Source: Owenia fusiformis (Eukaryota). Taken from it: a stretch of DNA of 64,000 nucleotides. The notes under the pieces were generated by a model that saw only the letters and a list, made by a program, of their open reading frames with translations, did no database searches and had not been told where the DNA came from. A program made the translations under genes and the position numbers. Location of the stretch: the NCBI GenBank assembly GCA_903813345.2, contig CAIIXF020000001.1:10540001-10604000 (forward strand). The letters run 5' to 3'. Shown piece after piece: positions 13,101 through 62,600 of the stretch; within the stretch, counting starts at the first letter, position 1; every line of letters begins with the position of its first letter.

Positions 13101-13571
13101 AATAAAGTAGGAACATTAATTAAGTATAATTATTACACGTAAAACATAGAAATGCGCCTTCTAGATAAAAGCATATCATAATTGTTACACGTATTTGATA
13201 AGTATTTACATTAGATTTTAATCAATCTTTATGTAAATAAATCCCAAGTGGCATTTCAAATAAAAAAACGACAAATACACAGTGATGACAAAATAAACAC
13301 ACTGCGAGATTATTTTATGGACCCCTGAGAATCAGATATAGTTATCTTCAGAGCCAAGATTCTTCCACTTTCATCGTGACACGGATTCTGGTACATGTAT
13401 GTCTAGTGCAGTTTTATAAAATGATTAATGGAAATAACTTCAAAGGATAAAAGTGCAGTAAAATCATTAAAGATATCATACTAAAATAATTAGATAGTAA
13501 CAATCGCTAAGAAACTTGCTTAAAATGCCAGGTATAGTAGTTGTGAGTATTTTTCAGATCTACAAACCACA

Positions 13572-16500: not shown

Positions 16501-19500
16501 ACACAAACGGGACACAGGGAGTCCTAAGAACAAAGGGTTTACGATAATGAATAAAAATGAACAGGACACAAACACCGGTGGGATTACAATTGTCAACTGA
16601 CGTAAACCAAGTAGACACATTGTTTGTGTCTGAAAAACGAACTAAGATTAGCATATTTGGTGGATTTGCAAAAATGATAACAGTAAAAAACATTTAAGGA
16701 GTATCTAACATTTTAATAAATTGACTGCGACTGGAATGTAGGGGGAGGGGAGGGGGTTAAAAAGCGCAGAAAAATTATATGACGCAACTTCTCTCAAGGT
16801 TCCAGTACACCATTTCAAATGTGACCGTGTCAGCCTTAAGAATATGGCGGGATGTTATCAGTTATTACACGTTTCAGCATGTGATACGGGAAATATTCCA
16901 CGAAAGTAAAAATTGTATAACCACGAAAGCGTAGCTTGAGTGGTGATACTTTTTTACTGAGTGGAATATTTCCCGTATCACATTCGCTGAAACGTGTAAT
17001 GACGATTTTATCACATACTATGTAGAAATCTAGTGATTTGATTGGTAGCTTTCTTTGTCGTTCTTACTTCTAGTTCCTCAAATGACAAATTCATCATTTC
17101 TAATAAATAGTAACATAGATAGGAAAGTATAGAATGAAGTTGTATGACGGCATTTCGTTACCATAAGACAACGTGTGGTACATGTGCTCGTATCATATGA
17201 AATTTATGTGATTCGGGAAATACGTCATAGAAAGCAACCAATCAAATTATTAGATTTCTACATAGTATGTGATAATAACGGATATCCACTTGTTACAAAG
17301 TTGTATAATATTATCAAGTTGATCACCAGTTTGTTTGGCGAAATACATTTTTAATTTGAAAACTATATTTTCGTGTATTTTTGCTAAATGCCATTTGAGA
17401 TCGAGGGTGATTTTGAAAACAAAATTAGATAATTAGTTATTTCCCCAAAATTGTTCTTGGACAGTATTTTGTCACACATCATTATTTGAGATTGAAGGAG
17501 TGGTATCGATATGGTGAACTTTTTGAACACGCGTTTCTCTTAAACCAGTCATCAAAATATTCTGAAAATTTTACACATCGTCAATTTATATAATTAATGA
17601 TCATCTTTTGGATGGTAACATTATAATTTGAAATAAATATATCTACTTTTCTCTATACTGTTTTAGAAAACATATCGGACACTTCTTTTGTTGGTATCAT
17701 ATGTTCGGAATGAAATGAAACATCTATCCGAACCTCATTGGAACAAAAGGACATAAACACAACGTGTTTAGGTCTATCAATATTGTAATTGTACAAAGGA
17801 AAGTTTGATTGATTCTAAAAAAGTATCTTGTTTATGAAATAAAAGGTTTATCTTAATTTTTATCCATTTTGGGGGGTTTTGTTTTAGGTTTTTGCATACT
17901 TTTTGTAAAATCAACCAAAATTTCCTTTGTTTCACTAGAACATTGAGAGGTCCAAAAAATGTTTTTCCAACAAGGTTCGGAAAGACATTTTACTTCATTC
18001 TCAAGATTTGGTAGAAAGGAACAAAAAACAATTGCACTAAAAAACAAAAAATGTTACCAAAAACAGTTATAAAAAATATATATAAATAATTTTTGCATTA
18101 AATTGTTGCCAATCAGTCAACATTACATAAATGACCGTGTTTTTACAAAATGTTTTCAATAATTGGTTTAAGAGAAAAACAATGTTGTATTCAGTTCACC
18201 ATATCGATACCTATCCTTTCACACTTTTCATGTATACCAGCGTTTCGACCAATTATTGTTGATGTAAAGTGTCGGAATTGTTGATTAATGAATCTTCAAC
18301 ATAAATTATATCGTATGTTTTTTGAATCATTTCCTACATAACATCATAGTACTATCTACATGTATGTTACATTCTGTGAATTGCAAGATTTTCCCCGGGC
18401 ATGAACGCTAGATAATAATTTGATGTGAAGGTGATCATGTTTCAGCTTACCTTCGACGCGTTGGGCAACCTGGTGTGGAAAATAGCGGGGGACAAAAAAG
18501 TTACACGTAAGTGATATCAATTCCTGGCAATGGCCAGGAAATAAGAGGTTTACTATTACTGTATAGTGAATCCCCTTTATTTTACCGCATATGCCAAAAT
18601 AATGATTGGGAGTATATTGGGAGTATATATACGGGGAGTATATATTGATTTTGCCAAGAAAGAAACTATGATATCTGAATGAGGCTACCCAGAAAGATGC
18701 CCATGCCATTATGAAACTCTCCTATTAATGAACTTGTTCCCGTGATATCAGTGTACTGTAATTGCAATTGTAAAATGGGTCTCGACAACCTATTTCATTT
18801 ATCTTATCACATACTTAATATAGGATAAACCTCCATCCATATGATTGATCTCCTTCACGGAAGTATGATTGTTATAATAATCCTAATACACAATAGTTAA
18901 ATAGACAATTATAAGAACCGTAGTTCAAATCAAGAAAGGTATGACTCTCCCGAGCGCACATCCTTCATTTAAGAACGCAGTGTTAATCAGATAGCTATTA
19001 TGACAAATGTGCACCATACAATGACACATCTCGTACTTTTTATGCATAAACAGCATGTCACGTATCATCTCATTTCCACTACCATGTTTCTGTCGAATAA
19101 TTAATTGTACTTTTTATCATCATTTCAGGTTATAATGCTCAAAAAAGAAGTAAGTACAGTCAATTTTAATTGTGTCGTCCGACCCATAGTCTCAAACTAA
19201 ACAGCTACACCCCGGTCAATTGATTCAAAAACCCCAGCCTCTCATTCTTTCAAATGTGAAGACTTGTCAATTTTCTCTCATATGGTTAGCTTTTGTAATC
19301 GCTCAGTTAACAGAAACACACACGTTTACATATATAGTCGGTATATATCTTAAGAATTCCAATTTATTTTCAGAAAAGATTATACAAAAAAATCCTTTTT
19401 CGTTTGTGGATGAGGACGAGGAGGATAAGCCTAATACTCCAGGTAATTCGACCTTGATTAATGACATTGAATTAAAAAGACAGCTGAATTGGACAACCTG

Positions 19501-20344
19501 TAGCGTTCTTGCCCTATTGTACCAAACCACATTTTGCTTACATGGGCAGAATTTTCATTAATGTTCACCTTTTCGGCGATAGTTTTTATTGCTTTTTTGT
19601 TCTTTGTTATGCCAGTATAGTATTTACCTAATTAAATGCCAAACTTGATTTACCGTTTATCTTTCGTTTGAGTTCTAAATAAGCTTTGAAAAAATGCAGT
19701 TGATAGATTCTTTTAAACAATCCATTTCAGAAATTGTGATAAAAACCGGCGAAGAGGAAACTCCAGGTATGTTTGATATTTAACAACAATCATGTTCTAG
19801 ATCATTGATGTAAATAGCCAACAAACAAAAAGTAGGATAAAAAACCCTAATCCTAGTAATCATCTCAATTTCATGTCGTTATTTAGAGATTCAAGGAAGA
19901 TGGGTTCTAAATGTTTTTATGTTTTCAGAAATTATAATAGTACATCCCGGCTCTAAAGAAAAGCCAGGTAAAAGAATCTTTAATCGAAGATGAAATTGAC
20001 ATTGTAACTCATGTAAAGTCACACAGTCTTTTTGTCAATTATGTTTATGTTTAATACCAAAAAAAGTTATTAACACTTTTGATCACGGCGTTAGGATGAG
20101 CCCGTGAGACCAAACAATCGGTTTGTTATTGAAATTTCGGATAAAGTCAAGTTTAAGTTATGTTTTTGGAATGACTGATAATTTCACTCACGGCGAAATA
20201 TACCTACAGAGACATTTCCTAATCACAAACACACGATAAAAATTTGGAAACACCAATGATTCATTTATAGAAGAGGAGTCTTCTCCAGCTGAAGAGGAGG
20301 AAAACGAGAATGAGGAGGAGAAGGAGGAGGAGGAAGAAGAGTAG
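13572..20344 (+). CDS. Novel secreted microexon-family protein, paralogue A (139 aa, acidic Glu-rich tail)
   Basis: Exons 13572-13691, 18446-18506, 19129-19149 (21-nt microexon), 19374-19442, 19731-19766, 19929-19967, 20271-20344 give 420 nt in frame. MKTTNVLLVTCALCFMFTLTETRSLRKRKKNKGSSALSLA/LTFDALGNLVWKIAGDKKVT/RYNAQKR/KKIIQKNPFSFVDEDEEDKPNTP/EIVIKTGEEETP/EIIIVHPGSKEKP/EEESSPAEEEENENEEEKEEEEEE*. AATAAA at 20570. Confidence 0.82.
14554..15608. mobile_element. Tc1/mariner-type MITE
   Basis: TIRs CGAGGATTGTCCCATAAGTAATGCACTATATGCTCTAACT / AGTTAGAGCATATAGTGCATTACTTCTGGGACAACCCTCG, flanked by TA on both sides. Confidence 0.8.
15681..16697 (+). pseudogene. Intronless GT7-family beta-1,4-N-acetylgalactosaminyl/galactosyltransferase (bre-4/B4GALT-like) with two frameshifts, nested in paralogue A
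   Basis: N-terminal type II TM segment (IVLSVSVLTLISTILI). After a frameshift at about 15932-15953: GGHWSPENHCKIEENVAIIIPFRNRETHLKHFL, FNKASLMNIG, FHDVDL (DxD), NGYSNRYWGWGGEDKD. A second frameshift at about 16580 restores GL...ITVKNI* (TAA 16695-16697). Confidence 0.85.
16861..17277. mobile_element. Short non-autonomous hairpin element
   Basis: Stem ATTACACGTTTCAGC..GATACGGGAAATATTCCAC / GTGGAATATTTCCCGTATCAC..GCTGAAACGTGTAAT, followed by inverted pair TTATCACATACTATGTAGAAATCTA / TAGATTTCTACATAGTATGTGATAA. Confidence 0.6.
17502..18211. mobile_element. MITE (copy 1; shorter copy at 30751-31096 in opposite orientation)
   Basis: TIR GGTATCGATATGGTGAACT / AGTTCACCATATCGATACC. Internal sequence is shared with 30751-31096. 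Confidence 0.75.
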
Positions 20345-20779
20345 AACATTTGCTATGGTGACAACTTTCATTGGAGATAGATATGACGATGTGTGTTTAC
20401 TCATCTTTCGCATGACGAGATGTGAATCTCAGGAAAATGTGGCATTTGTTATATAATGTTTTCTAAATAGGATCATCGAATACAGCTTGAAAGTAAATAT
20501 TTATCATCAATGTTTTGTTTTATACAAGAAATGTAAACGATTGTATACTTGTTAATGATCAGGTTATCCAATAAATTAGGTACGAGCATCCCGTAAATCT
20601 TTTATTAGATAGATAAAACATTTCATATATTCTTAAGATAGTTTTAACCCATATTGTCAACAAATTCAACGTTGTTCAATTTGTCAATGTTGTCCGCAAA
20701 TGTAGCATTACATGAAGATTTGCGCTGGCGCTAATCTTCCGTTGTGTCGTATTATCGATTTGTAACAGTCGTGTGGTAA

Positions 20780-22536
20780 AAGCTTGTATTAGCGAATGCA
20801 ACTAACGCCTATCGGCTACCGGATAAACCTTATATTTTACAGGCAACTCATTTAAATATGAATAGTACCTGCCACTATTCAATTCATATCTATATAATGT
20901 TGGTCATAAAATAGTAGGTCAATATGGAAGCTGCTAGCCGTTAGTTGCATTCGCGAATATAGGCTTAATATTACCACCTGCGTTTTACAAAGTACTAGTA
21001 GACGTCAAATAGATTTAGCGTGTATTCGCAAATGCAACTAACGCCCGTCGGCTACCAGTGTAAAAGAGTAGGAGGTCCTATCAAATTATGGTCCTACTCT
21101 CCATTGATTTATATGGTGACCTAAATACAACTCTTTCCCTTATTATCTTATACACAATCAGGGCCAGGAAGGGCCGTTTAGAAAGGGGGCCATAATCCCC
21201 AGGGTACCATAATTTTTTTCACACCTGATAACCCTACTATCACACCAAACTAGTTCTCACTACGTTCTCGAAAACGGGCTTCAACTGTGTACGAACGGAC
21301 TGGACCTACTAAGAACCGTTTGGGATCTATTTACAAACTTCATCGAACGTACTCGAACGGGTAGGTCCTCTAGAACTTAGACAATGCTCAAAATTTTCTC
21401 GTGGTCGTCACGTTCTACAATTAGAACGAGTGACAACGTACTAACGACGAGCTGGACGTACTACGAACGGAGCCGTCGTACTTCAATCCTACTAGGGACG
21501 TTTTAACAACGAGTTGAACTGTCTGAGGACGTGTTGAGAACGAGGTAGAACTTATTGCAAACGGGTTTAAACTGATTAAGAACGTATTTAACACTGCTTA
21601 TGAACGAGTTAGCAAAAATATAGCTATCACACCAAACAAGTTGCGACTGCGTTCTTCAAAACTGGTTTTAAACTGTGTGCGAACGGAATGAACGTAGCTG
21701 CAACTTTCTAAGGTCTATTTACGAACTTTATGAACGTTCTCAGACGGGAATGTGATTTTAGAATTTTGAATCGATTTAAAATTCGATGGCGACCATACCG
21801 TTCTGTAATCAGGTCATGTTGACCTTCTAGACTAAGGGACGCGTTCTACGACGTTGCACACCGACGTGATGCGACCTGAACGAACTGCGAACTAGATGGA
21901 CGTATTGAAGACTGTTTAAGAACGAAGAAGCTAATTATTTCAGACATATTTCCCGACCACAGCCAGATTGAGCCCGTTTTACGACGTTTTCGTAGGACTA
22001 GCAAGAACGGGTAAGAACTAGTTTGGTGTGATAGGGGGGTTAACCTGCTATTTTATGGGCAACTCGTTTAAATATGAATAGTGCCATGCCACTATTCCAT
22101 CCCTAATTAAAGGTGCAACAATTAGTGCAGGGGGGGGGGGGGGGGGTCATTCAACGAACTTCGACCAGTGTCAAAATATATTTAATTTTGGATATTTCAT
22201 CAAGACTAACATAATATATATTTTCATTATCTACAATGAACCCCCTGGATGAACATTATTTTAGCTGATATTCCTCTCGAAACGTGGTGGATCTTAAAAA
22301 TCTATAAGTGAGACTCCCTTTATAGAAGCTTTGAACTGAATTTACACTTCTTAATGCTGAAATTGATAGTCTGTACATACATTTTAAGAAAATAGGTATG
22401 TCAAAGAAGGTTTTAGCTCAGAAAAAGTAAAAAATTTCCAATGTTCTCTCTACAGTCCTTGTTGCCCCTTTAAATGTGTTAGTTATAAAAAAGTAGGTAG
22501 CCGACAGGCGTTAGTAGCATTCGGAATATAAGCTTA
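20780..22536. mobile_element. Two adjacent small inverted-repeat elements (about 20780-20967 and 21022-22536); the second is interrupted by the 808-bp element
   Basis: Repeated terminal motif GTATT(A/C)GC(G/A)AATGCAACTAACGCC..TCGGCTACC and its reverse complement at about 20935-20967 and 22496-22536. Confidence 0.55.
21232..22039 (+). mobile_element. ~808-bp non-autonomous TIR element, full-length copy 1 of 4
   Basis: TIR CCCTACTATCACACCAAACTAGTTCT / AGAACTAGTTTGGTGTGATAGGGGG. Closely similar copies at 46136, 53833 and 62148. An internal TIR-like motif TATCACACCAAACAAGTT lies at about 21625. Confidence 0.85.
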
Positions 22537-23244
22537 AATTGATGAGAAATTCAAAAGATTTATTCCCGGCGCGTGTACCTAGGAAGGTAATAGGAAGTGC
22601 AGGGTCACGTTTACGTGAAAGTTTCATATCATGACCCCCAGAGATTAATGTCCTCCATCAATTAGGTTTTCCAGTGACCCAATTACGAGTATTCTCCTTA
22701 TACCTTTGTACTCAACTGGACAATCAATCTCTACCAAGAGGAGAACTAATCCCAAGACGAACATAATTCTACACGTCCACGTACAAGTTGTATTCAAGAC
22801 GTGTAGTTATTCACTGACAATTAAGATTACGCTTTAAATTTGAAAACCAATTTGGGTGTAACGTTTACACATTCAATTGATTATGGCGATTGTGGTGAGA
22901 TTTACTGTTTTTGGTGTTGACAATAGCCTTCGATTTGTTATATCGTCAAGGATACAGTTCTCGTGTGCAATTCACAAGAACCTGTTTGCGAATCTGTATT
23001 GAGGTCGGTCGATTACGAGGCCTTTGAACTGACTTTTATTAATCGAGTGAATAACATAAGTTCTTCAACGATATGCTTTAATTTTATTTGTAGACTCTTA
23101 TTTAAATAAACAATAAACAGCACTTATCCCAGGTAAATTATCCTTGAGGAAATGACCATGGTCAGAAGCGCACAAACCAATCACAATATCACCATAGCAA
23201 CCGTTTCGCCTATTAAAGTACTACTTAAGGATTCTTAAGTTTTT

Positions 23245-23307
23245 TATAAATACATACTGTGGATTACACCAGATATTCATCCTTCGTCGGAAGGCACCAG
23301 GGTAAGT
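23245..23307 (+). promoter_or_regulatory. TATA box and 5' non-coding exon of paralogue B
   Basis: TATAAATA at 23245, ATTCAT about 30 nt downstream, donor CAGG|GTAAGT at 23302. Matching acceptor TTTTCAG at 24114 just before the ATG at 24130. Confidence 0.6.
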
Positions 23308-24129
23308 TTGCTTTCTTATTTACGTTTACCAAATATAGCAAACCAGCACTATATTCTTTGTAAAGAAACACGATTCCAAATATAATATTTACGAACTAAT
23401 ACACACCAATGTCACAGAGATTAAATGTACATTCATGTATTTATTTGAATATAATAAATCATATACATCTTAATCATTCTGTTCCATATTTAGATGTTGT
23501 GTTTCAGTGTTGATAAATTAGTCACCTTGTTTATTTAATCTTATTTAGATTCATGAAAAAGTAATCAGGATACTTTTTTTTTCGGACCTTACTAAAATGT
23601 TCAAAAAACTTAATTATTTCAGTCTTTTTATGAGGAAATTCTGAAATTTTCTGACTTCTGCGATGAGCCTTCAAGATATCTTGAAAGCCTATGCTGATGC
23701 TCAGAGATAAAAGAGCTCAGTTCCTGAAGACATTTTTAAGATGACTGGTATTTATCAAAATGGCTGCCATTTGTCGTTAGAAATGTAATCTTTGCTAACC
23801 CAATTACCAGTTGATAGATTTTATATGCTGATAACTAGGGACAAGGGAGCTCTGTTCAAGAAGAAATTTTCAAGATGCCCGTTATTTATAAGAACCTGTT
23901 TTGTTCATCGGGATTTCCTACTCCGTAGAGTTGCTGTTTTCCAGTTCAATCAACGATACCAGAAATACCCATGCCCATGCATTACAAATATATTTACTGT
24001 TCCTTAACAGAAACATTCGTGGTGTTTGACTAGTATCACTTCAAATCTTTGTATCCTATATCTGACCCTAAAGCGTAGGAAAAGTCAACATACATCAATT
24101 TATATATTTTTCAGATCTATTTCGCTAAA

Positions 24130-24771
24130 ATGAAGTTATCAGTAATTGGACTGTTTATATGTGTGCTGGTATGTATAGCATCCGTAGTAGAATCGTCCCC
24201 TTACAGATCAGGCGGCGGATTGATGGGTGGTGTAAGTTTATTCACTCTAAACCAAACAAATTATTAAGCATCTTTTTCATCATCACTTAATAGTCTCGTG
24301 AGTATGATGGCCAATGACGAAATCATAATTGTTTTTATAGCAGCATCAACTAAAACTTTTTTTATTTCAGTTCAAATTTACTCCAAATGGAAACATGAGG
24401 TTTAAATTCATGAATAAGAGAAACAAGAATAAGAAATCTGGAAGTAAGAGAATCTTTATTTAAACACTAAGAAAAATCGCATTTTATTTGTTATAAATTA
24501 AGAATCGGTCAGTGACGTGATTAAATAGTTAAAATGCAGAAAATGTAATAATAAGTCAATATACGTACAAACAACATTTTTCTTCTTTTTCAGTTTGGAA
24601 TCCATTTATAAGGAGTAAGTGATTATTCACATTCATCGCTTTGTACTTCCGGATCTAATTTTTTACTTTTTGAATAAAGCAAGTGCTGCTTTTACATTAA
24701 AAAATATTTCTACTTCTTTTTTTTCAGAGCGTATTATAGAGAAAAGGCCATTTGGTTTGGTTGATGGCTAA
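24130..24771 (+). CDS. Novel secreted microexon-family protein, paralogue B (79 aa, minimal and basic)
   Basis: Exons 24130-24231, 24371-24443, 24594-24614 (21 nt), 24728-24771 give 240 nt. MKLSVIGLFICVLVCIASVVESSPYRSGGGLMGG/FKFTPNGNMRFKFMNKRNKNKKSG/IWNPFIR/KRIIEKRPFGLVDG*. All donors are GTAAG; AATAAA at 24922. Confidence 0.88.
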
Positions 24772-25376
24772 GAGCTAGGTTATTGCACGCGACAGTTGAA
24801 CACGAGCGGAGACTCGATGATATTTTTGACATGTCCTGGTGCAATATCTCAGGGAACCCTACATCTACGTACATGTACCACACGAGTGACTGGAGACCAT
24901 TTTGTTATATCTTTTGTATGGAATAAAAAAGGAACAGTATTTTGGTTTTATGTCATAGGTGGAGTTGGAAATTTGTAAAACAAACAATTGTTGCCTTGGC
25001 ATATCAGAGTATAGCACTTAGATTACTAGCAAAAGTATGTTTATGTGTGCACTGGTACATACTTCCCATATTTGCATTAACCGAACAGATGCAACTTTCA
25101 GAACGAAATATTAAATTGCATTAAATTTTAAAAAACTTGACATCCATAACATAGAAAATAGACACCGTAAAACAATCTTTAATTTTTCAATGTCGTTCAC
25201 CATCACCTAAGAGGATATTTATATCATACCATATTAGAAAACATGACATGGATTACAACACTCCTTACTTTTATGTTGCGAGTATGACTTAATCTCACAT
25301 ATTTCACTATTGTCCTCAGGAAATCAAAATGAAGGTTGTGAATATAAGTATAGCGAAGGGTAGACAAATAGCATAA

Positions 25377-25546
25377 AAAGTATAAAATACATTCTTCTCA
25401 TATAAATTACACGTATTGTAAAGTATAAAATACATTCTTCTCATATAAATTACACGTATTGTAAAGTATAAATTACATTCTTCTCATATAAATTACACGT
25501 ATTGTAAAGTATAAATTACATTCTTCTCATATAAATTACACGTATT
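25377..25546. repeat. 43-bp tandem repeat, 4 copies
   Basis: Unit AAAGTATAAA(A/T)TACATTCTTCTCATATAAATTACACGTATTGT. Confidence 0.9.
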
Positions 25547-26527
25547 ATAAGCAATATCTATACCTATTTAATCATGTTTATTATCAATTGTAAATGAAAA
25601 CAAGGATTCGCGTTATTTCACATATTAACGGACCAGTAACTAATCAATAGTCTTGAATATGTTCATTGCAGGCAAACAAATAGTTTTTAATGTTCAAAAT
25701 GCAGGATACAAGGTCAGAGTCTCGATTATAACAAATATTGAATTGTACTTATGTTAAACAACGTATGTCTTGTTTTCAGACTTTGAATGAGTGTGACGGA
25801 AATTCAAAATTCATTCAATTTTAATTTTTATGAACAAACTAGATGTTTGTCCCTAAACGCGAGATGGTATTTCACAATATATGCACAGCCTGAAGAGCGG
25901 CCCAACGACCTTGATATTCCGTATTCCTACACTCCCGTGAATGTGACTTTAGTTTGTAAGCTACCATAGGGCAGTACAAATCCTGAATTAACTTTAGCAA
26001 AGTTTATGATGTCAAAGAACTCTCATAAATTATACCTTGGACGTGATGGATGTAATAAAACGGAGAAATTACGGTTTGAAGATAAATTCTGTGTAATACC
26101 ATTTATGATAAGAAAACAAGCTATCCACTCGGCCGCAGGAGTATATCATTCTAAATACGATACACAAGAGAAGACGGTGAATACACGAAGGATTCGTGTT
26201 TAAGGTACTAATGTTGGGAATATTGTGCTAACAAATTTCGTCAATGATGTATAAATCGGTGTAAATACCGAGAGTATGTTAATCTTTATACATAAAGGAG
26301 GACACAATTCTTCACGGGAGTCGAAAGATTTATTGATTAATAAATAAAAATTGGACATAAATTAGAAGCACTAAGGATGAATCTTAAATTGGCATGCTGG
26401 TACCCGACGTCATACCTTTTCTATTTCACTTTGACTTTACAATGGAGTTTCTTTAATATCAAGGATTGAAAACAAAACCAGGACTAGTCTATCATTATAT
26501 TTTCTCCTTATGTTTCAGGCTCGCACG

Positions 26528-29500
26528 ATGAGTCTATCAACCAATGTGCTTGTTCTATGTTTGGTGATATGCTTAGCAATCGTAGTAGAATCTGCCCCTC
26601 TCAGATCAAGTGCACTGTCGGGTATGGTAAGTCAAAGAACTAATCCAAATGTTATCCATCCCTTTGTTAGAAATTTTGATTGATTATATGCACTATATTT
26701 ATATTCATGTCATAAGTACATGTACATCTAATTAAAATAGATGTATGTACAGGGTGGTCCAAAAAATGGGACACTCGTATTTCCAAAATAAATATTGATT
26801 TTCTTGATGAAAACATGTCATGTTATATACCAGTGGATAGGGAATTTACTTATCTTTAATTTGGTATATCATAAGTTCAAATTTATTATAATGTCTGTCA
26901 ACCAGCGTCCGTTATATAAATTATGTCATTTTAGTTTCAAAACAGGTTTTCCAAAACTTGTAAAAAACAAGTTTTTTGTCAACTTTATGTACACAAACAG
27001 ACGTTTAATATGTCCACCATTTTGATCAATTATAGCCCTCAATTCTGACCTTAACTGGTCAAAAACATCATTAAAATTCTGTTGAGACAATGAATTCCAC
27101 TTCTCAACAAGTCTATCCGTAATAAGGGACTGAGTAGATGTAAGGGGTTCACGGTAAACCAATTCTGTTAGTTCTCCCAATACGTGGTAGTGGGGGACGT
27201 TGACATCGCATTATCCGATTATGTTGTTTTTAGACCATTCTGATATGAACTCATTCTCGAATCATTATATTTTTCAACAAGATGGGGCGCTAAGCAATAG
27301 ATCTCACAAGAGTGTCAAATGTTTAAAGGAAAATGTGCCTAAATTCATCCCCCTAATCACTGCCTCCCCAGATCACACGATCACCCGTCTGCGACTACCA
27401 CGTATGGCAAGAACTAACAGAATTGGTGTACCATGAATCCTTTACATCTATTCAGTCTCTTGAGGACAGAATTGAATTAATGAGAAGTGAAATTCATTGT
27501 CTTAACAGCATATCAATGATGCTATTGGCCTGTCTTAGTTTAGGCCAAAATTGAGGGGTACAATTGATCAAAATGGTGGACATATTGAACGTCTGTTTAT
27601 GTAAATAAAGTTGACAATAAAACTTGTTTTTGCAAGTTTTGGAAAACCCGTTTTGAAATGAAAATGACGTCATTTATATTATGGACGCTGGTTGACTGAC
27701 ATTATAATAGATTTGAACTTATGATATGATCTAAAGTAAAGGACCTTATAAGGGAACGTCATGTGAAGAATCATATCAAAACTATTACCAAAAATTCACT
27801 ACGTAAATCTTCATCATCTAGATCTTTTTGGCGAACCCTCCAAATGTTTAATGCTAAAAGTAAATTCCCAAATGAAATCATTGACCCATTTAACCCCAAC
27901 TCTACGATTGACGACCCCAAACTAGTTTCCCATACGATTGGCAAATATTGGGCAAATGTCGGACCCAAAAGTAGAAACCCCAACTATGTCAAGACCAATC
28001 TGTCTGATGAACTAAATAAACTTGAAAGTGAAACCAAATTTTTTTGTAAAGGTAGGCGTCTGGAAGACAATATTTTCACTCTTAAAGGTATATGTAGTCT
28101 CCGTAGGGATAAAAATCAAAAGACTTATCTAGCTTTCATCGATATATCGAAAGCCTTTGACGTTATTGACCGTGAACAACTCTTTATATCTCTTTGGAAG
28201 AAAGGAATCCAGGGCAAAGCCTGGCGTGTATTGAAAAATCTATACGCATGTGTCAAAAACAAAGTTATATTTGGTAATTTTGGTAGTGAATGTTTCGAAG
28301 TTGAATCTGGCCTAAAACAGGGATGTGTACTCTCACCTACTCTATTTACTGTAATTATGACCGATTTGATTGACAGCCTGATCGAAAATGATATGGGTAT
28401 CCCTTTCAAAGATCTAACTCTACCCGCATTGCTTTTTGCAGATGACATCGTCCTCACAGCTACCAGCGAATCTGATCTCTGTAGAATGCTTGATATTACA
28501 AACGAATTTGGTAAAAAATGGGGGTTTAGTTTCAGCTCAAAAAAGTCTAAAGTTATGATCATAGGTGGAAAAGTTAACAAACATAAAGTTTGGAAGCTTG
28601 GTGAGCTCTCCCTCAATGAAGTAAAAACATATAAGTACCTTGGCGTTTATTTTGACAAAACACTGAAAGACTCGCACCATATTAATAATATTCTTGGTTT
28701 AAAATCAAAAAAGCTCAAAGGTTATATAACCTCAACCCTCAACAAACATTGTAATATCCAACGAATTCAATTTGGTAACACCATGTATAATAACATGTTC
28801 CTTCCTTCAATATTGCATGGAGCAGGAGTCCTCCTTCCAAACTCAAGCGAAATGAAGAAAAATTTAAAGTCGTATCAATACCAAGCTGGTTTATCCATTC
28901 TTAGCCTTAAGTGTTCCCCAGCTTATGAAGCCCTTGTCTGTGATATGGGCTGGCGTCCAATTGAAAAGATCTTTCAAAAACGTCAAATCGACTATTTCTG
29001 CTATCTAAAGAATAAAAACTCTCAAACCCTAGTATCAAAGGTTTTATCTGCCCTCTTGGAATCATATTCAATAAATAAAGAATCTAATTGGAAGTATGTT
29101 TCTAACATAGCAAATATATTAGTGCACCATGGGCTCGATAATAAATTGAATGTTAATTTTGAAGAATGGTACTCATCCTTTCTCAATATTTCCAACGAAA
29201 TTACTACTAAGGAATTGTTTTCATCAATTTGCAACCGGCCATCCCTATCCCTTTATAGAAATGTTAAGAGACATGTCTTTCAAGAAGAGTACCTAAAAAA
29301 CCCATTCAACTTCCAAGGAGCAAGACAAAAATTCTTAGCCAGGTCGGGTTGCTTTAAATTAGAATCAGACCTTAAAAGGTGGAATAAAAGTGATGGCTTT
29401 TGTAAATTATGCCCCTCCAATTCTTATGACTCTATGTCCCATCGCCTGTTCCTTTGCCCCGTCCTCCAGGATAAAAGAAACCTATTCATTAACAATTTAA

Positions 29501-32340
29501 TCTCTTCATGTGACTTTGCCCTTGTAGGTGAATACTTATCAGCGAGCCTTAATGATAAGCTACAATGGATTATTGGTGATTCACTTTACATAGGCACATG
29601 GGGGCAGGACCAAATAAATAAATTTGAGAAATGTGTTTACGAATTTTTAAAGGAAATGTATTTTTAATGATTTTAACCTATTGTATGTATGTATTTTAGT
29701 CTCTTTGGATGCACACTAAATTTTAGTAGTGCCGCTGTTGTAAAAGCGTTTTATCCTAATAAATAAATAAAAAAAAAATAAAAAAATATACGAAATTAAA
29801 GATAAGTAAATTCCCTATCCAGTGGTATATAATATGACATGTTTTCATCAAGGAAATCAATATGTATTTTTGAAATACGAGTGTCCCATTTTTTTGGACC
29901 ACCCTGTATATATTCATTAATGCCTCACACCATATATGATATAATACAATAGTAATGCAATAGATTGAAGTCAATTGTCAAACACAAAACATTTCATAAT
30001 TAAATTTAGTAAGAACAAGGAGTCATGTTCATTTAGTTCATGAATAAATGAACATGACTCCTTGTTCTTACAAGTTGATTGCATATGCAATTATTCATGC
30101 TTATAAGAACATATAAAAATAGACCAAATTAACAGCTATAGTGAATAACTGGGGGGAGGGGGGTACATGTTCAACTATAATTTATTCTACGTGGACAACG
30201 GGTTCCGGGTTTGACTACATCTGGATTCACAAGGTTTCGGTTGTTCCAACTCATTCTGTTGTTCCTAGACCCAGTGATGGTTTGACTATTGAACAGATAT
30301 CACCATCCAGATAATGTTATATGTGACACTCATTTTTTTTAATGGGAGGTTGAATTAATATTGACAAAATAAGTCATTTTTCAATATTTACAGAATTTCC
30401 ACCAAATTCACCACATTCAAATGAGGTACACCTTTGATACACCTGGTATGTTTCTAAATCCAATATTACATTTCAGATCAATTTCACGAAGGATGGAAAG
30501 ATTAAGTTCAAGTTCAAGGATAAGAAGAACAAGAGAAAAAAGTTTTTGGGTGAGTAAGTACTACAAATAAAACATGACTGAAGGCGCACTTGAAAATCGC
30601 CATTTTGTAAACAATGATTTAAGTGATTGGTTTGATTGCCGCAAATTTGCCGCACGCCGAAGAAAATACTATTTCCAATGCTTTTGACATAGAAATTGTT
30701 GTAGATACCAGTAGTACTATTATAAGCATTCGGTATCAAGCCAAACGATAGGTATCGATATGGTGAACTGAATTCAAAAATATTTTTCTCTTATAAACCA
30801 ATTATTGAAAACATTCTGTAAAAAACACGGTCTTTGATGCAATGGTCACTTTGTGTCATTTTGTTCAAATGATGTTCGGATAGATGTTTCATTTCATTCC
30901 GAACATATTATACCAAGAACAAAACGGAGTCTGATGTATTTTCTAAAACAATATAGAGAAAAATATATCATTTTTTCAAATTATATTGTTACCATTCAAA
31001 AGATGACATTAAATTGACGATGTGTAAAATGTTCAGAATTTTTTGCTGACTGGGTCAAGAGAAATGTGTGTTCAAAAAGTTCACCATATCGATACCAATC
31101 CTTTAAATGAAATGGGACAAAATCCAGTCTCTAATAGTCCATAAGAATGTCAAAGGGTCAACATCTAACCTGTAATCAACAATTCACAATAGTTATCAGC
31201 TGGAAACAATGCAAAAGCTTGATTCGGTCCCTTTTTTGTCAAAGCCGGATCCATCTTAAAGCATGAAGTTAAGATATACGTATGTAAGAGCTTCATTTAT
31301 TATCTGTCATGTCCTAAGTAATATATTTTCTCTTTCAGCTTGGGATCCTGTAAATAGAGGTAAGTTAGAGTATAAACTAGGCTACTTCTCTTTTTAATTA
31401 CTTGAGTTTTTAACAGCTACCATTGCTCGTATGTTACGTATGGAAACATACTAACTGGTAAAATGAATAGAGATGTGTAAGGTTCATGTAAAATAGCTAA
31501 AAGGTGCTGCTATACGTTTTGCTAACAATGTCACCCCGAGAGTTAATCAATAAATGACTCAAATTATGGCCAACACAGAAATCCCAATTTCAGAATTTTT
31601 TTCGGAAAACTTGATATCTCTAAAAATCTTTATCGCTGAAAGTTGTTGATCGATGCTATTCAAGTACAACAAACTTTTTTCCATTGGACACTCTATACAC
31701 ACAAAAAATCACGTAGATTCCTTAATTATTGAGACAGTTATTCCAAAATTAGTGGGTGGTGTTTTTATGTCACCCTGTACCTTAAAATATGAGTATTTTC
31801 TCTACATGAAAACTTCGAGACAATTGTATATTTTCTGTCCTTGCATCGTTGCAAGACAAATACGTGCAATAATACTTAAGTCAATCGGACACTTTGTTCA
31901 TGAAGGAGATATTCACTCATCAACTTCACCTTTACATAAGGAACAAAATTGTATATATATATTGCTACATGTATGAATAGCATAAAAAGGTTGGCAGTGC
32001 TACATGTATGGGTTTAGGGATGGGGGTGCATATACTGTACATTAGAAACACCCTGTATATCAAATTAATCGTTTTAATTAATCACAAAAATGTGACGTCG
32101 ATAATATCAACGCTTATATTTGTGAACATTTTCATTTGATTTTGCTATTTTATTTATTATTGCATCATTTAAACGAGACCAAGTGAACAAGTGATATATT
32201 GAATAATCTCAATTTGACTTTTATTTGTTTTAGCATTTGTGAAAATAAAAAACCCATTCGTATTGGAAGGAACAACACCTCCACCTCAAACGACTACAAA
32301 AAAGCAAAAGAAACGGAAACAGAAAAAGAAACGACAATAA
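26528..32340 (+). CDS. Novel secreted microexon-family protein, paralogue C (99 aa, Lys/Arg-rich tail)
   Basis: Exons 26528-26626, 30477-30549, 31339-31359 (21 nt), 32234-32340 give 300 nt. MSLSTNVLVLCLVICLAIVVESAPLRSSALSGM/INFTKDGKIKFKFKDKKNKRKKFL/AWDPVNR/AFVKIKNPFVLEGTTPPPQTTTKKQKKRKQKKKRQ*. Confidence 0.87.
27728..29785 (+). mobile_element. 5'-truncated non-LTR retrotransposon (LINE)
   Basis: Interrupts the right arm of the Tc1-like element (TTATGATAT|...|ATATACGAAATTAAAG, possible ATAT TSD). 3' (TAAA)n/poly-A tail at about 29757-29785. Confidence 0.88.
27763..29667 (+). CDS. LINE ORF2 fragment: reverse transcriptase plus C-terminal Cys/His motif; no endonuclease, internally deleted
   Basis: Motifs FIDISKAFD, GLKQGCVLSPTLF, LLFADD, YKYLGV and CKLC..HRLFLC in the 634-aa ORF. 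Confidence 0.88.
   Translation: MKNHIKTITKNSLRKSSSSRSFWRTLQMFNAKSKFPNEIIDPFNPNSTIDDPKLVSHTIGKYWANVGPKSRNPNYVKTNLSDELNKLESETKFFCKGRRLEDNIFTLKGICSLRRDKNQKTYLAFIDISKAFDVIDREQLFISLWKKGIQGKAWRVLKNLYACVKNKVIFGNFGSECFEVESGLKQGCVLSPTLFTVIMTDLIDSLIENDMGIPFKDLTLPALLFADDIVLTATSESDLCRMLDITNEFGKKWGFSFSSKKSKVMIIGGKVNKHKVWKLGELSLNEVKTYKYLGVYFDKTLKDSHHINNILGLKSKKLKGYITSTLNKHCNIQRIQFGNTMYNNMFLPSILHGAGVLLPNSSEMKKNLKSYQYQAGLSILSLKCSPAYEALVCDMGWRPIEKIFQKRQIDYFCYLKNKNSQTLVSKVLSALLESYSINKESNWKYVSNIANILVHHGLDNKLNVNFEEWYSSFLNISNEITTKELFSSICNRPSLSLYRNVKRHVFQEEYLKNPFNFQGARQKFLARSGCFKLESDLKRWNKSDGFCKLCPSNSYDSMSHRLFLCPVLQDKRNLFINNLISSCDFALVGEYLSASLNDKLQWIIGDSLYIGTWGQDQINKFEKCVYEFLKEMYF
30751..31096. mobile_element. MITE, internally deleted copy of 17502-18211
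   Basis: Same TIR GGTATCGATATGGTGAACT / AGTTCACCATATCGATACC, with shared interior in reverse orientation. Confidence 0.75.
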
Positions 32341-32959
32341 CAATAACAACGACATAAATTAACGAAGGATGTACTCGCTGACGGTTCATAACAAATAAAG
32401 AAAAATACATTTGCACAATGTCACAATAAAAAGCTTTACGCGACCGATCTAGAAATATTAAACATATCTTGAGTTAATAATACATGTTTAATTGTATGAC
32501 TGAATACCACACTTGTTGAACAAAACTACACTTTATATTTGCTTGCTTTTAATTTGCTGTAAAAAAAATAAATGAATAAACAAAAGTATTACTTTGAACA
32601 GAGTAAGCATGCTTTTTATTAATTTAGTGCTCATGGATGAAATATATTCATTTTAGCAGAAGTATTTTCTGGGTCGCGGCGAATGGCATGATTTCCTGGA
32701 GTCTCTTCAGTTGCAATGTAACAGTATTGGGGTCGATTGGTGTTGTTCCACTACTGTCCTTGGCGGGGGCTCACTACGATACTGTACGACTCCCAGGGTC
32801 TCCTATAGAACGTCAATGGAGTGTGGTCACGAAGTGCGCACTCTATTTTTTAAAATACGAAAATGTTCAGTCTTAATTGATTCTGATCTTCATCCGCTAT
32901 GTATCCCAATGACACAATCTTTACTAGTACATAGGGGTTAAGATGACTACTAGCCAATT

Positions 32960-50874: not shown

Positions 50875-53800
50875 ATGAACGTGAAATGGCTTATGATCTC
50901 GTGCCTTATCGTAGCGTATATAATGGTTGTAGAAGGCTGGAAAAGCAAATATGCTGGTACAGAGTTCAAAGTCAGGGTGAGTATATGTTACTAGGAACTT
51001 TGGTCGTGGGTCTATAATCACTCCAAAATAATTACTCCATAATGTCAGGTATGTTAAGTATCTTTTAATCAAATTTTAGTATCACTAGCAAAAAAACTAC
51101 TGGGCTGGTGTAACAAAGTATTCAAAAGCAAGTATCCCTAAATCAATTGTTGCAACGATAGATATATACTATAGTCATAGTGAGGAAACAATAGACTTTA
51201 TGAAGTCTCTCTTACGACAGTTTTGGGGAAATAGAGATGTCTAGTGTAGATATTAAGTATGCCGAAAAAAAATTATTTCTGTGGGCTTCTGACACCGGTG
51301 GTATATATAATTCATGGAAATTTCCACTAGATTGCAGGAGACGCAATGTCCGATTAATGTTAGACAGAGACTCATGATAGTAGAGGAACACAAATTGAAT
51401 CAATTCTGTTAAAGATTCCACCTTGACCTGTTCAAAGTCATACAATGTGATACTTGGCCCATTATAGATGCATCCGAGTGTTTGGCTATATATCATATTT
51501 AATGTTAATCCACTAAAGAAGTAGGAATGGGACGCCTAAGAGTTTTAGTTACACTTGACGATGTAACGGGCATCTGGTCAATAGTAGTAATACGTTGAGG
51601 ATTTCATGAATTCAAGAGAAAATTTAATAAACACGTTCACACAACCTTAACAAAAGCAAGAAACTGAAATATTTTGAATCGATTTTTAGATTAGGTTCGA
51701 CGAGGCTGGACAAGTAAAAATAAAATTGTTAGGGCCAAAGAACAAAAGGCAGAAACAAAAAAGTAAGAAATTGAGTATTTATCATGAATATGCATTCAAA
51801 AAGTTCCCAAAGAAATCTCTGAAGGCTATGAACTATCAACAATGTCATGGCCTCATCACAGCAAGGCGTTCGAATTCTTAGCTTGGAATTTTTAATGATC
51901 ATTTTCTCAGACTCTAGATAGTGTTGGACATTTTCAGGAACACACTGTAAACTTATATTTTGATTAAATATTTGCTGCATGGAACTTATAATTTGGTTGA
52001 CAGTTTTGAATGGTCGAGGAACAACTTGTTTCATCTATATGGGTTTAAAAGTTCAGTATGTCATGTTATGAGATTTATGGGTTTCTTCCAAAAAGTTGAA
52101 ACTCAGGCATCAAAAAGATGTTGACAGATTAATAGTTTTCCTCACCCAGTGGTTTAATGAGATTAGAGATTAGAGCTGGGAACAAAGAACGCTCAACGCA
52201 GAGTTTCAGTGATCCAGCCAGTGATAGATAAAACATTCCCTCTGACCGGGTCATAGCTTGTGAGGTGCCCTGGGATACTGGGGTCAACTTCCAGAGTCTG
52301 GGGTTTGCATAAGCCAGCTGAATCGCTGATCTGCTCTGTGTTGTTGTAAGGCCATTAATCATTTTGATCACTGGTCACTTTGAGTTTAAAAACCTGCACT
52401 GGTAAAGAATTGGACACTTTTCGGCTTGGCTTTAGATTGTGAAAATGTATTGTAATTTGTAACTGTAACTAAACTTTAAAATTATTAAATAAATTATGAG
52501 TATTAAGGAATCGACTAGTTTGTCCATGGGCTCTATCAGGTGGTAGAGCCCATGGTTTGTCATTCTTTACAAAATTAGATAAACTTTTAACAATGGATTG
52601 GACCGACCCAGGGGTCCAACAATAGTTTGAGCAAAGTAAGATGCATGAGAGGACAGAACAAACCTTTTGATAACTAATCCGTTTCATAGCTTCAAATCCC
52701 CAAAATCACAGCCCATTCAACATATCGAGCATGATTATCCAAATAAATTCCTGATTTATTGTATCAGGCGTATAAAAAAGGCAACAAACAAATAAATCGT
52801 AAAACCGCAAAATGATCAGTGATCACTGCACATATTTCACCCATTTGCCATGAAATCACATAAATATTTCTTCTTTTTTCAAGGATATGTCATGTATTTA
52901 CATTGAATAATGGTTAGCTAATAATCATTGTTTTGCACAGTGGGTCAAAAATTGGTTTTAGACAAAAGAAAAGTCAGCGCACTGGCCTGGTGCTGGACAT
53001 GGCAAAAAAAAGTAAAATTGATGACAGCGTCTACATTGATTTCATTCAATGTAATATGAAGCTACAATCATTTTCAAAGATATGTCATTTTTATGCATTG
53101 GGTCATAATGTGCTGAATAATCATTCCTTATAGATAGTGGGCCAAATTAAGCTGAGGATTAAGTTTTAGACATTGCAAAAACCAATGCACATGCCCATGT
53201 GTAGCATAAACAGTTAGGTATTCATGCTCATAGTCACATATCCCTTCACATTTCTTTGCATATAGAGATGGGCTCATCTCTCCATGTTATGCAGTCACCT
53301 ATGGGTTTCGGGCGAAGAACACATATGTTGGTGATTCTTCCTCGGTCTGTTGCAATGTTGTGGAGGGGTGGTGAACACTTTGTTTCTGAGATAGCCCAAG
53401 AGGAAAAGGCACAACAAGTCAGGTCAGGAAATCTTCCAATAGCACCAGCCAGACCCGCGAACTGACTCTTGCAATGTTTAAATTGAATGATTATTTCGAC
53501 AACCACGACTACATGTAAATAAAATGACTTATCATTTAAAAGAGGGGAAACATGGCTTCATGAATCAGTAAGTGAAATTGATGCAGTCATCGCTGGTTTT
53601 CTAGATCTGGTTTTACGATTTATTTGCTTTTTTGATACGGACTATATATAATATGCTTGTAAGCACAACATTATCCAATTAAAAGTAAGAAAAACAACAT
53701 CAATGTATGGTAATTAATTGTGTTTTTTGTTTATTTCAGTTTACGATTATATCAGAAAAAGTGAGTTTAACTTATTATATAACGAAACAAATTACAATAT

Positions 53801-59600: not shown

Positions 59601-62600
59601 GACTCGCATGCGCATACATTCGGATTTTTTTCAAATTCAGATTGAATTAAAGGAGGATTGGTAGCCAGAATGCAACTTCGATATCCTCCACAAAGCTAGT
59701 AGCGCCAGTCCTGGAGTCTGTATTTCTCACTTCAAAATTTGAATCGCAAGTTTTGGTCTTGTTTCCAAATAAAAATTCAAAACACACAAAAAGTGATCAA
59801 GATCATTAGTGGGTTAGTCAATGTTCATTAGTTTAAATATTTCCAATGCTTATTGTGAATTCATAGCCAGGTAAATGTCAGACAATAATGACGCCAGCTT
59901 TGTTGGAAAATATCTTCATTCTCCTACAGCCGTAAAAATATACAGGCACGATCAGCATTTTCGCATCATTTGGAGATTAAAGAATATCGAGTTGGAACTC
60001 TGGCTTCCAAAAAGTTCCAATCCTCCTTGTTGGATTGCGTTCCAATATATGATCCTACGAGAGAACTCCCCTACCCATTTAGGCATTCTGATATTAAATC
60101 ATTACATGCCGATAAAGTAAATGTAATTACATGCCTTGTTATATACTTAATTTATCAGCCCGAGAATAAAATATTTTCGAGAAGTTGTCGGCATGACATA
60201 CAGTAGTACAAGCGAATCTAAAATAGAAAACCGGTAAAAGGAAAAAAGTCAATTTTTGCGCATTCTCAAAAAACGAAATGGCGATCCTGGGGGCAGATTG
60301 TTCCAACTCCTACTGTCCTACATTCCGTTTTAAGTATCCCTCCTCCAAGACGAGCGTGACCCTTTAATTAATTATGCCTGAATTAATTACACGAGCCTCG
60401 TTCTCAAATCTCAAGAGTAGATATTTCCTTCAATTCTATTTTTGAATTTTCCTTCTCCCTTGTTGGAATGTTCAGAATGTGAAATATAAGGCGAATAATA
60501 ATACAGATATTTTGATCAATTTTCAGGACACTATTTACTTGTTTCACTCTAAAAACTAATCATGAAAGATGCATCTAGATATTTTCTTCAAGAGAACGAA
60601 CTATTTGAATAGTGTTTCGTGATGTGATGAGTGTTCGACCAAAAATAACAAACATCACAGTAAAATAATGATGATGAATCGTTTCATGACAGGAAGAATC
60701 AAATGAGATGTACTCAAGAGGAGACCACTTCATATAATGAATAATGTATATTTTATTGTTGCAGGGGAAGATAAAGGATGGAAATTTCATCGTTAAATTA
60801 GCCGGACAAAAACCTGTGGGTGGGTGTCCAACTTTTTTATGACAAAATATGTTTTCACTGAAGCAAGCATCAGGCATACACTCCCCTCCATGAGTTTGGC
60901 AACATTTGCTCCCCCATTGAACTACGTGTTAAAGCCTCTTTACGTTTGAATTTTTATTTATTTACCCTGCGATGAAATTACTTATAATATCAATGGAAAC
61001 GTAACTTGACTTTATTTCCAGTCCCTCCAAATTCTCCCAATTTTTTCCTCAATTACAATAGGTCGAAAATTGATAATAAATTTGATGAATTTTTGAAAAC
61101 AGGAAACTTTGGAGGTATTGGAAATAAAGTCAAGTTACGTTTCCATCAATATTATAAGTATTTTCATCGCAGGTTAAGTTAATAAAAATTCAAACGTAAA
61201 GAGGCTTTAACACGTAGTCTAATGGGGGCGCTAAAGTTGCCAAACTTATGGAGGGGAGTGTATACACATTCATTAGCAGTATTGTAGCTACCTGTGATGA
61301 TTGTAAATTTGCAATAACATTGATAGACGATAGGAAATAAGATATCCAACATATCTATTAATTAAGCACTACATTTTAAAAGTGAATGGTTGTCAAACTT
61401 TACATGACACCCGATTGCTTTAAATAATGGGTTTAAGGACGTTGTTGGATTGCTATTTATTGTTTACAACTATCAGGATTTTATATCTCGTTTATCTAGA
61501 TAATATACAAATATTTCTTCCTAATTTCGCTGAGTACCTGTTCCCGGGACTTGTTCCTGTTCATCTTTCTATGATTCTAGAGACGATTGTGTTCCTGCAG
61601 TCCTAAGGACTAAAGGAACACGCCTCGTAGAATCGTTGAAATTGCGGGAGGTATTCACTGAAAATAGGATGAAACATGATGTTTTTTATTCACTGTTAAA
61701 TTCCCCATTCTCTTATTGGGGATGTCTAATAAGTACAAAGAAAGAAAATTGAATAAAGAATTCAATTCAGATTTAAATTTCACTGCACGATACTCATAAA
61801 TTGGTTTGTAATATTGGACGTAAATCGCTTCAATAGGTGAATTCACAGTGTTGAATATGCATTTTTTGCTATCGTCACCTGTTTGTGTGGTCCCGGTGTG
61901 TGGGTACCCTATTTTTGTCACGTATGGTGTAGACAAATAAGAGAGTGTGGAAAATGACAGTGGTATAGTATGATCATTATAAATATCCTGTATGTAATAT
62001 AATCTTTCTTTTCTTTTCAGTCTTCGATATGGTTAAAAAGAGTAAGTATATGTAATTTGCTTAAATGCTCATTTAAATGGGAAAATATTTGGCAGCATTG
62101 GTGCTGGTAGGGCCAGAATACATGGAAACATATATAGCAGCCACTTACCCTACTATCACACCAAACTAGTTTTCACTACGTTCTCGAAAACGGGCTTCAA
62201 CTGTGTACGAACGGACCGGACGTACTTAAAACCGTTTGGGGTCTATTTACAAACGTCATCGAACGTACTCGAACGGGTAGGTCCTCTAGAACTTAGAACA
62301 TGCTCAAAATGTTCTCATGGTCGATACGTTGGAGCTGGAGCTGGACGCACTGCGAACGGAACCGTCGTACTTCAATCCTACTAGGGACGTTTTAACAACG
62401 AGTTGAACTGTCTGAGGACGTATTGAGAACGAGGTTGAACTAATTGCAAACGGATTGAAACTGATTAAGAACGTATTTAAGACTGTTTATGAACGAGTTA
62501 GCAAAAATATAGCTATCACGCCAAACAAATTTCCACTGCGTTCTTCAAAACTGGTTTTAAACTGTGTGCGAACGGAATGAACGTAACTGCAACTTTCTAA

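Follow-up and report, generated by a model that had tools for sequence, protein, structure and literature searches.

Do seven 21-nucleotide (nt) segments spaced along one stretch of Owenia fusiformis DNA form genuine exons and, if they do, is their skipping used to diversify the encoded proteins? The stretch, hereafter the window, comprises 64,000 nt of the forward strand of contig CAIIXF020000001.1 (assembly GCA_903813345.2, positions 10,540,001 to 10,604,000). It is AT-rich (~35% G+C). A preliminary description of the window proposed seven paralogous genes, each with an invariant 21-nt microexon. It also drew a parallel with the micro-exon genes (MEGs) of schistosomes, which diversify secreted proteins by skipping symmetric exons. 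We conclude that the segments are in all probability real exons of seven tandemly duplicated genes, g1 to g7, and most likely constitutively included. The feature is of a known kind. This is a new example, inside an undescribed orphan family.

Seven 21-nt segments with strong splice signals

All seven segments lie on the plus strand exactly where the preliminary description had placed them. The splice signals ascribed to them are also there. Each is preceded by a pyrimidine-rich tract and AG, and followed by GTAAGT in six cases and GTGAGT in one (53740). At positions -17 to -3 the tracts contain 12-15 pyrimidines in 15 bases and, at all seven microexons, the tract abuts the AG. Judged by these signals, all seven are microexons, defined as exons of up to ~30 nt with functional splice sites. 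Donors of the form GTRAGT follow 7/7 microexons, versus 3/7 of the exons immediately upstream (exon 2).

The segments were said to encode [FYW]-[DN]-x-x-x-[KR] in phase 1-1, and every translation does. With two leading bases completing a split codon, the peptides of g1 to g7 are YNAQKR, WNPFIR, WDPVNR, FDVIKK, FDMIRK, YDYIRK and FDMVKK. The complete heptapeptide has a mostly hydrophobic residue, an aromatic residue, D or N, three variable positions and K or R. The K/R codons fall in a purine-rich 3' half, with 6-9 purines among the last nine bases.

Two scans addressed chance occurrence. The first sought AG, N nt and GT[AG]AGT on both strands, with a pyrimidine tract of at least 0.7 and N from 9 to 60. 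For N=21 there were seven sites on the plus strand and none on the minus strand; any other N gave 0-1 per strand. The second sought AG, 21 nt and GT together with the peptide motif, and used 200 first-order Markov simulations of the window as a control. Again, seven sites were found on the plus strand and none on the minus strand. Counting the two strands jointly, the simulations averaged 0.35 sites and never exceeded 3.

The word "invariant" suits the length of the exon, 21 nt in 7/7 genes, but not its sequence. Across the seven codons, mean pairwise identity is 25% and mean similarity 66%. Neighbouring exons vary in length, as had been claimed. Exon 2 measures 61, 73, 73, 70, 70, 73 and 55 nt in g1 to g7, first coding exons span 99-282 nt, and the exon after the microexon 44-203 nt. 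Hence, the 21-nt exon is the sole exon of constant length across the seven genes. It makes up 3.6-8.8% of each coding sequence, and the introns flanking it (n=14) range from 113 to 4897 nt.

Each microexon is the third coding exon of a complete gene model

We scanned for start codons followed by a hydrophobic stretch, then applied paralogue comparison and searches for splice sites and phase. The scan gave seven start candidates on the plus strand (13572, 24130, 26528, 34857, 44006, 50875 and 56682), each upstream of one microexon. The outcome was seven tandem plus-strand genes, each a complete ATG-to-stop model with one stop codon. The layout is a signal-peptide exon, an exon of 55-73 nt, the 21-nt exon and a terminal exon; in g1, four further exons follow the microexon. 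The junctions cited for g2 in the preliminary description (24443, 24594 and 24728) agree with our model. The exons are as follows, with X11 denoting a contig set, and P0001 and P0007 public protein models, all described below.

g1, coding exons of 120, 61, 21, 69, 36, 39 and 74 nt
13572-13691, plus strand: exon 1, with start codon, predicted signal peptide and basic stretch, ending in phase 0 (hydropathy; X11 joint; identical in P0001)
18446-18506, plus strand: exon 2, first part of the conserved core, phase 0 to 1 (X11 contig joints on both sides)
19129-19149, plus strand: microexon, RYNAQKR including the split codon (X11 joints on both sides; present in P0001)
19374-19442, 19731-19766, 19929-19967 and 20271-20344, plus strand: downstream exons, to the stop codon (X11 joints)

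g2, coding exons of 102, 73, 21 and 44 nt
24130-24231, plus strand: exon 1, predicted signal peptide (model)
24371-24443, plus strand: exon 2 (model)
24594-24614, plus strand: microexon, IWNPFIR (splice signals; model)
24728-24771, plus strand: terminal exon (model; X11 contig over 24728-24935)

g3, coding exons of 99, 73, 21 and 107 nt
26528-26626, plus strand: exon 1, predicted signal peptide (X11 joint to 30477)
30477-30549, plus strand: exon 2 (X11 joints, depth 137)
31339-31359, plus strand: microexon, AWDPVNR (both joints in one X11 contig)
32234-32340, plus strand: terminal exon, end of the core and a very basic tail (X11 joint; model)

g4, coding exons of 282, 70, 21 and 203 nt
34857-35138, plus strand: exon 1, predicted signal peptide with K-rich and T-rich stretches (88% DNA identity to the g5 exon)
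36122-36191, plus strand: exon 2 (model)
37126-37146, plus strand: microexon, LFDVIKK (88% identical to the g5 microexon in a 42-nt match that takes in the flanks)
42044-42246, plus strand: terminal exon, end of the core with a T/P-rich and K-rich tail (model)

g5, coding exons of 195, 70, 21 and 113 nt
44006-44200, plus strand: exon 1 (identical in P0007)
47126-47195, plus strand: exon 2 (in P0007)
47773-47793, plus strand: microexon, LFDMIRK (in P0007)
49449-49561, plus strand: terminal exon (in P0007)

g6, coding exons of 102, 73, 21 and 74 nt
50875-50976, plus strand: exon 1 (model)
51690-51762, plus strand: exon 2 (model)
53740-53760, plus strand: microexon, IYDYIRK, with the GTGAGT donor (splice signals; model)
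55187-55260, plus strand: terminal exon (model)

g7, coding exons of 189, 55, 21 and 50 nt
56682-56870, plus strand: exon 1 (model)
60765-60819, plus strand: exon 2, with a weak GTGGGT donor (model)
62021-62041, plus strand: microexon, VFDMVKK (DNA similarity, flanks included, to g4 and g5)
63940-63989, plus strand: terminal exon, its stop codon 11 nt short of the end of the window (model)

Two further details concern the ends of these models. In g1, g2 and g3, a good acceptor (pyrimidine run plus CAG) lies 9-15 nt before the ATG, at 13556, 24114 and 26518. This suggests an additional non-coding 5' exon. Downstream of the g1 microexon, the exons of 69, 36 and 39 nt are all phase 1-1 and contribute to an acidic tail. 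The 36- and 39-nt exons (19731-19766 and 19929-19967) both start with AAAT, end with CCAG and encode similar "E-I-[VI]-I...P" units; both are spliced into the X11 contig. The pair looks like a tandem exon duplication.

The seven genes are paralogues with a common core

DNA similarity is strongest between g4 and g5 (E 2e-47) and between g2 and g3 (E 1e-10). Both g4 and g5 resemble g7 around the microexon, adjoining intron sequence included (E 1e-6 to 1e-7), and g6 less closely (E ~1e-3 to 1e-4). The g1-g2 pair gives E 0.001. Protein core profiles were scored against 3000 composition-matched shuffles. A profile of the g1-g3 cores scored 35 bits on g6 and 17 bits on g7, reached by 0/3000 shuffles in each case; for g4 and g5, 2/3000 and 5/3000 shuffles did as well. 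Reciprocally, a g4-g7 profile scored 20.6 bits on g3 (0/3000) and recovered g2 at 1/3000. Thus, these tests join both subgroups. Together with the identical order and phases of the exons, they lead us to accept the description of seven paralogues. The most divergent is g1.

The predicted proteins have 79-191 residues, start with a hydrophobic N-terminus in 7/7 models and are cysteine-free after the signal peptide, which was predicted from hydropathy. The only segment common to the paralogues is a core of ~40-45 residues. The remainder is low-complexity and highly divergent. Writing h for hydrophobic, the core starts in exon 2 with "h-x-h-x-x-[DN]-G-x-h-K-h-x-h", continues through the microexon heptapeptide and ends at the start of the next exon with "K-x-[IV]-[IVK]-x-x-x-P-F-x-h". 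The microexon adjoins the best-conserved segment of the core, 12 codons at 45% identity.

Charge differs sharply between family members. The mature isoelectric point (pI) of g1 is ~4.8 (net charge -10), and those of g2-g7 are 8.9-11.7 (net charge +2 to +21). Tails are glutamate-rich in g1, lysine-rich in g3 (pI 11.3) and threonine/proline-rich with lysine-rich stretches in g4. We conclude that the products of g1 to g7 are small, largely disordered and lineage-restricted proteins, predicted to be secreted.

Transcript contigs and public protein models contain the microexon of g1, g3 and g5

Read mapping covered 13300-32900, the region of g1-g3, and used three raw RNA runs (X16, X17 and X18, with the same species label) and the contig set X11. 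For g1, X11 contains the joints 13691 to 18446, 18506 to 19129, 19149 to 19374, 19442 to 19731, 19766 to 19929 and 19967 to 20271. The contigs had depths of 645 (first two joints) and 1252 (last three joints). For g3, the joints are 26626 to 30477, 30549 to 31339 and 31359 to 32234 (contig depth 137). Hence, in both genes the microexon that had been predicted to appear in transcripts is joined to both of its neighbours. Although X11 is listed as "RNA?", its GT..AG joints fall at the exact predicted boundaries, and we conclude that it holds complementary DNA. None of the 15 joints listed, out of 100, connects exon 2 directly with exon 4. X11 also has a low-depth (2.7) unspliced piece over 19137-19302. 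In the mapped g1-g3 region, expression was strongly sample-dependent, being high in X11 and absent from X16-X18.

Public protein models were consistent with the contigs. P0001 (139 residues, "unnamed protein product [Owenia fusiformis]"), the one protein retrieved with g1 exon 1 as query, equals the g1 model letter for letter, microexon included. P0007 (132 residues, Owenia fusiformis), retrieved with g5 exon 1, equals the g5 model in the same way, again with the microexon. Each is the sole sequence of its cluster, which therefore records no shorter isoform. The published Owenia fusiformis annotation, in the account given of it, drew on RNA-seq assemblies and curated splice junctions (PMC9977687). 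P0001 and P0007 may derive from that annotation.

Constitutive inclusion is the probable interpretation

Constitutive microexons are found in families of paralogues and in phase 1-1 extracellular modules. Typically, intron positions and phases are conserved, length is fixed by the encoded segment, and strong splice signals offset the small size. The genes described here differ from the usual families of this kind in that the host is an undescribed orphan family and the microexon is the sole exon of constant length.

We infer the following history. An ancestral gene would already have had a signal-peptide exon, an exon of 55-73 nt (phase 0 to 1), the 21-nt exon (phase 1-1) and an exon starting in phase 1. 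Tandem duplication would then have copied this structure seven times. Exon 2 would have drifted between 55 and 73 nt while the microexon, linking two conserved elements of the core, stayed at 21 nt. What constrains the microexon length may be the distance between those two elements, which every in-frame insertion or deletion would alter; seven residues correspond to about two helical turns. Recognition would be constitutive, through a tract abutting the AG, a consensus GTRAGT donor and the purine-rich 3' half, in which the K/R codons might also act as a splicing enhancer. The sequence features, the seven complete reading frames and inclusion in transcripts of g1 and g3 and in public models of g1 and g5 are observed. 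That every one of the seven genes includes the exon constitutively, that protein structure sets its length and that the K/R codons enhance splicing are deductions from these observations.

A structural prediction bears on the second point. The single-sequence AlphaFold model of P0007 has a mean predicted local distance difference test score (pLDDT) of 59, rising to 66-81 over residues 41-100, which cover the core. Exon 2 appears in it as a beta-hairpin, and a helix (83-109) passes through the microexon and extends into the exon that follows.

Several observations count against this interpretation. Transcript support comes from one run, indexed as RNA by guess, and concerns g1 and g3. A skipping joint may lie among the 85 of 100 joints beyond those listed, and a minor skipped isoform may exist, since rare variants are lost from contigs. 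The raw runs X16-X18 have zero depth on the exons of g1 and g2, with reads on repeats, and give no inclusion ratio; we take the zero depth to mean that the genes were not expressed in those samples. In g2, a 421-letter X11 contig consists of 24728-24935 plus 213 upstream letters, and inclusion is putative. The models of g4, g6 and g7 are predictions from sequence, and g4 exon 1 had no match when searched among proteins of at least 166 residues. Kinship is weakest for g1. BLASTP of g1 against g5 was not significant (E 1.2), and the link of g1 to the g4-g7 profile reaches just 16/3000 shuffles. Finally, in the single-sequence AlphaFold model of P0001 (mean pLDDT 58, predicted template modelling score 0.23) the helix falls on exon 2 and the microexon is coil, and the ESM Atlas model of the same protein has a pLDDT of 0.48. 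The P0001 and P0007 models thus disagree, and the placement of a helix at the microexon is tentative.

The cluster shows that very short exons can hold one exact length throughout the history of a rapidly diverging family of secreted proteins. The locus also repeats one 21-nt exon seven times in nature, each time between different flanks and introns. These copies could serve studies of tiny-exon recognition beyond vertebrates and insects. In addition, the cluster draws attention to an unannotated orphan family in an important annelid model, expanded in tandem and encoding charged secreted proteins with possible roles in the tube, mucus or defence.

Regulated skipping and other explanations

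The strongest rival is diversification in the manner of MEGs. Here, regulation would cause the microexon to be left out, either by itself or, in g1, along with the remaining phase 1-1 exons, giving several variants per gene. We consider this very unlikely. The parallel is attractive on several counts. The microexon is phase 1-1 in seven genes, and the four internal exons of g1 after exon 2 (21, 69, 36 and 39 nt) all share that phase. The proteins are secreted, lineage-restricted and tandemly expanded, and their expression depends strongly on the sample, with X11 high and X16-X18 giving none. Like MEGs as described (10.1101/2023.06.21.545858), the genes encode signal-peptide proteins without homologues outside the lineage, are duplicated and have short symmetric exons amid much longer introns.

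According to the same source, the bulk of the coding region of MEGs consists of symmetric exons that are very short, 10-20 in number and 6-81 bp long (mostly 15 bp). MEGs are described there as specific to Schistosomatidae, with very few consensus motifs conserved beyond the signal peptide. By contrast, g2-g7 each have one microexon in four coding exons, g1 has three small symmetric exons (21, 36 and 39 nt) in seven, and the microexon is 3.6-8.8% of the coding sequence against those 10-20 very short exons. It encodes part of the conserved core, not a variable stretch, its splice signals are strong and canonical, and its host is an annelid. Of the features that define MEGs, secretion is indicated by hydropathy. 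The coding sequence is not built mostly from microexons, the host lies outside Schistosomatidae, and the phmmer search with P0001 found no homology to MEGs.

The sequence at the skip junction also argues against skipping. The preliminary description stated that the exon can be skipped without a frameshift. This holds for the frame, phase 1-1 in 7/7 genes. It does not hold for the product in g4 and g5, where the junction T|AA would form a TAA stop codon that truncates the protein and cuts off the whole C-terminal exon. In the other five genes, the junction codon would be CAA, AAG, GCA, AAA or GAG and the frame would stay open. Only included forms were seen (contigs of g1 and g3; public models of g1 and g5, each in a single-member cluster). 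Thus, the proposed analogy with MEGs and the regulated skipping that goes with it are unsupported, and symmetry alone does not make an exon a device for diversity.

A more specific version of the same idea, an annelid counterpart of MEG logic, is decidedly improbable. The microexon would be skipped under regulation in the expressing tissue, in g1 together with the 36- and 39-nt exons. Were this true, the core would be shorter by two helical turns in five genes. In g4 and g5, T|AA would be a splice-controlled stop that removes the whole glycosylation-prone charged tail. Secreted proteins graded from polycationic to polyanionic could in this way arise from a single tandem cluster, perhaps as tube or mucus material.

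It is highly unlikely that the exons are regulated microexons of the neural type, with inclusion driven by an SRRM3/4-like (eMIC) factor and limited to particular cell types. Neural microexons mostly occur in conserved intracellular proteins, and the hosts here are secreted orphan proteins. The 21-nt size, in-frame symmetry and strong 5' splice sites are typical of SRRM3/4-dependent microexons as one report describes them (10.1101/2024.09.17.613571). In that report, 74-79% of these have a UGC enhancer adjacent to the 3' splice site, and the pyrimidine tract and branch point are typically displaced from the AG. The acceptors of g1 to g7 differ on both counts. UGC lies between tract and AG in 0/7, and the tract, abutting the AG in 7/7, is not displaced. 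Within 60 nt upstream, TGC occurs only at -59 (g2) and -34 (g5), both upstream of the tract. A search of full-text literature found no paper joining "Owenia fusiformis" and "microexon", and nothing relevant on annelid, Platynereis or Srrm microexons.

That the segments are chance look-alikes of splice sites or decayed pseudo-exons outside any messenger RNA is almost certainly wrong. All that speaks for it is that the three raw RNA runs had no reads there. Against it, seven sites occur where 0.35 are expected, all on a single strand, each in a different gene and in the equivalent position of seven complete reading frames. For g1, g3 and g5, it is refuted by transcript contigs or public protein models.

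An orphan family of charged secreted proteins

We searched for relatives of the proteins outside the cluster. A phmmer search with P0001 against 1.84 billion representative proteins gave six matches at E<=0.001: the query and five long repeat proteins. The five were rejected as relatives and judged to be artefacts of a short "FD..GNL.W"-like motif, with 6-9 matched stretches each. PAS, TPR or SBBP beta-propeller domains occur in three, and one is without a Pfam family. Pfam assigned 0 families to P0001. A PDB sequence search with P0001 and P0007 gave 0 matches at E<=1. In the ESM Atlas, P0001 reached a best feature score of 0.77 and a structural template modelling (TM) score of at most 0.36, all below the reporting bars. 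Foldseek of the P0007 model against PDB gave 0 matches at E<=0.001 (best E 0.11, TM 0.21). We conclude that the family is an orphan, without Pfam, PDB or credible sequence relatives.

Two functional readings, neuropeptide precursors and antimicrobial peptides, were prompted by the dibasic sites and the high pI. Neither gained support from any test, as repeated peptide units and homology are both absent, and each is no more than a possibility. A looser resemblance is to the cement proteins Pc-1 to Pc-5 of Phragmatopoma californica, which also come from a tube-building annelid and are small, secreted and low-complexity, with strongly basic and strongly acidic members (PMC9999432). That source gives the composition of the Pc proteins as high in Gly, Tyr (Dopa), Lys and His, or in phosphoserine. 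Unlike them, g1-g7 have tails rich in K, E or T/P, and the phmmer search with P0001 found no sequence relationship. The resemblance, drawn from sequences alone, may be a lead and is not a finding.

Repeats and other elements around the genes

Two coding frames of other kinds lie within introns of the cluster. The first intron of g1 (4.75 kb) contains an intronless frame of 222 codons (15932-16600, plus strand) with Glyco_transf_7N (E 7e-41) and Glyco_transf_7C (E 1e-22) domains, of the beta-1,4-galactosyltransferase family. The corresponding bin (15916-16569) has depth 0 in X16, X18 and X11 and 1.38 in X17. The frame could represent a retrocopy, or else a silent gene nested within g1. The first intron of g3 (3.85 kb) holds a retrotransposon, with a frame of 645 codons (27730-29667, plus strand) matching RVT_1 (E 6e-28) and flanked by inverted repeats at ~26670-27045 and 29759-29977.

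One repeat family has four copies in the window, at 21213-22052, 46075-46938, 53783-54658 and 62046-62728; 46145-46853 and 53834-54539 share 89% identity. Reads of this family are abundant in every RNA run, at depths of 76-181 in X16-X18 over 21148-22455. Two copies start ~5-25 nt past the microexon donors of g6 and g7, where the splice signals are apparently undisturbed. Tandem arrays occur between g3 and g4 (32960-33692; 29 copies of a 25-nt unit, 87% match) and downstream of g2 (25377-25550; four copies of a 43-nt unit).

The g4 intron after the microexon (4.9 kb) contains nested inverted repeats, with 37252-37642 paired with 41430-41720, and 37626-37845 with 38683-38874. These suggest insertions of terminal-inverted-repeat elements, which would account for its being longer than the other thirteen introns that flank the microexons.

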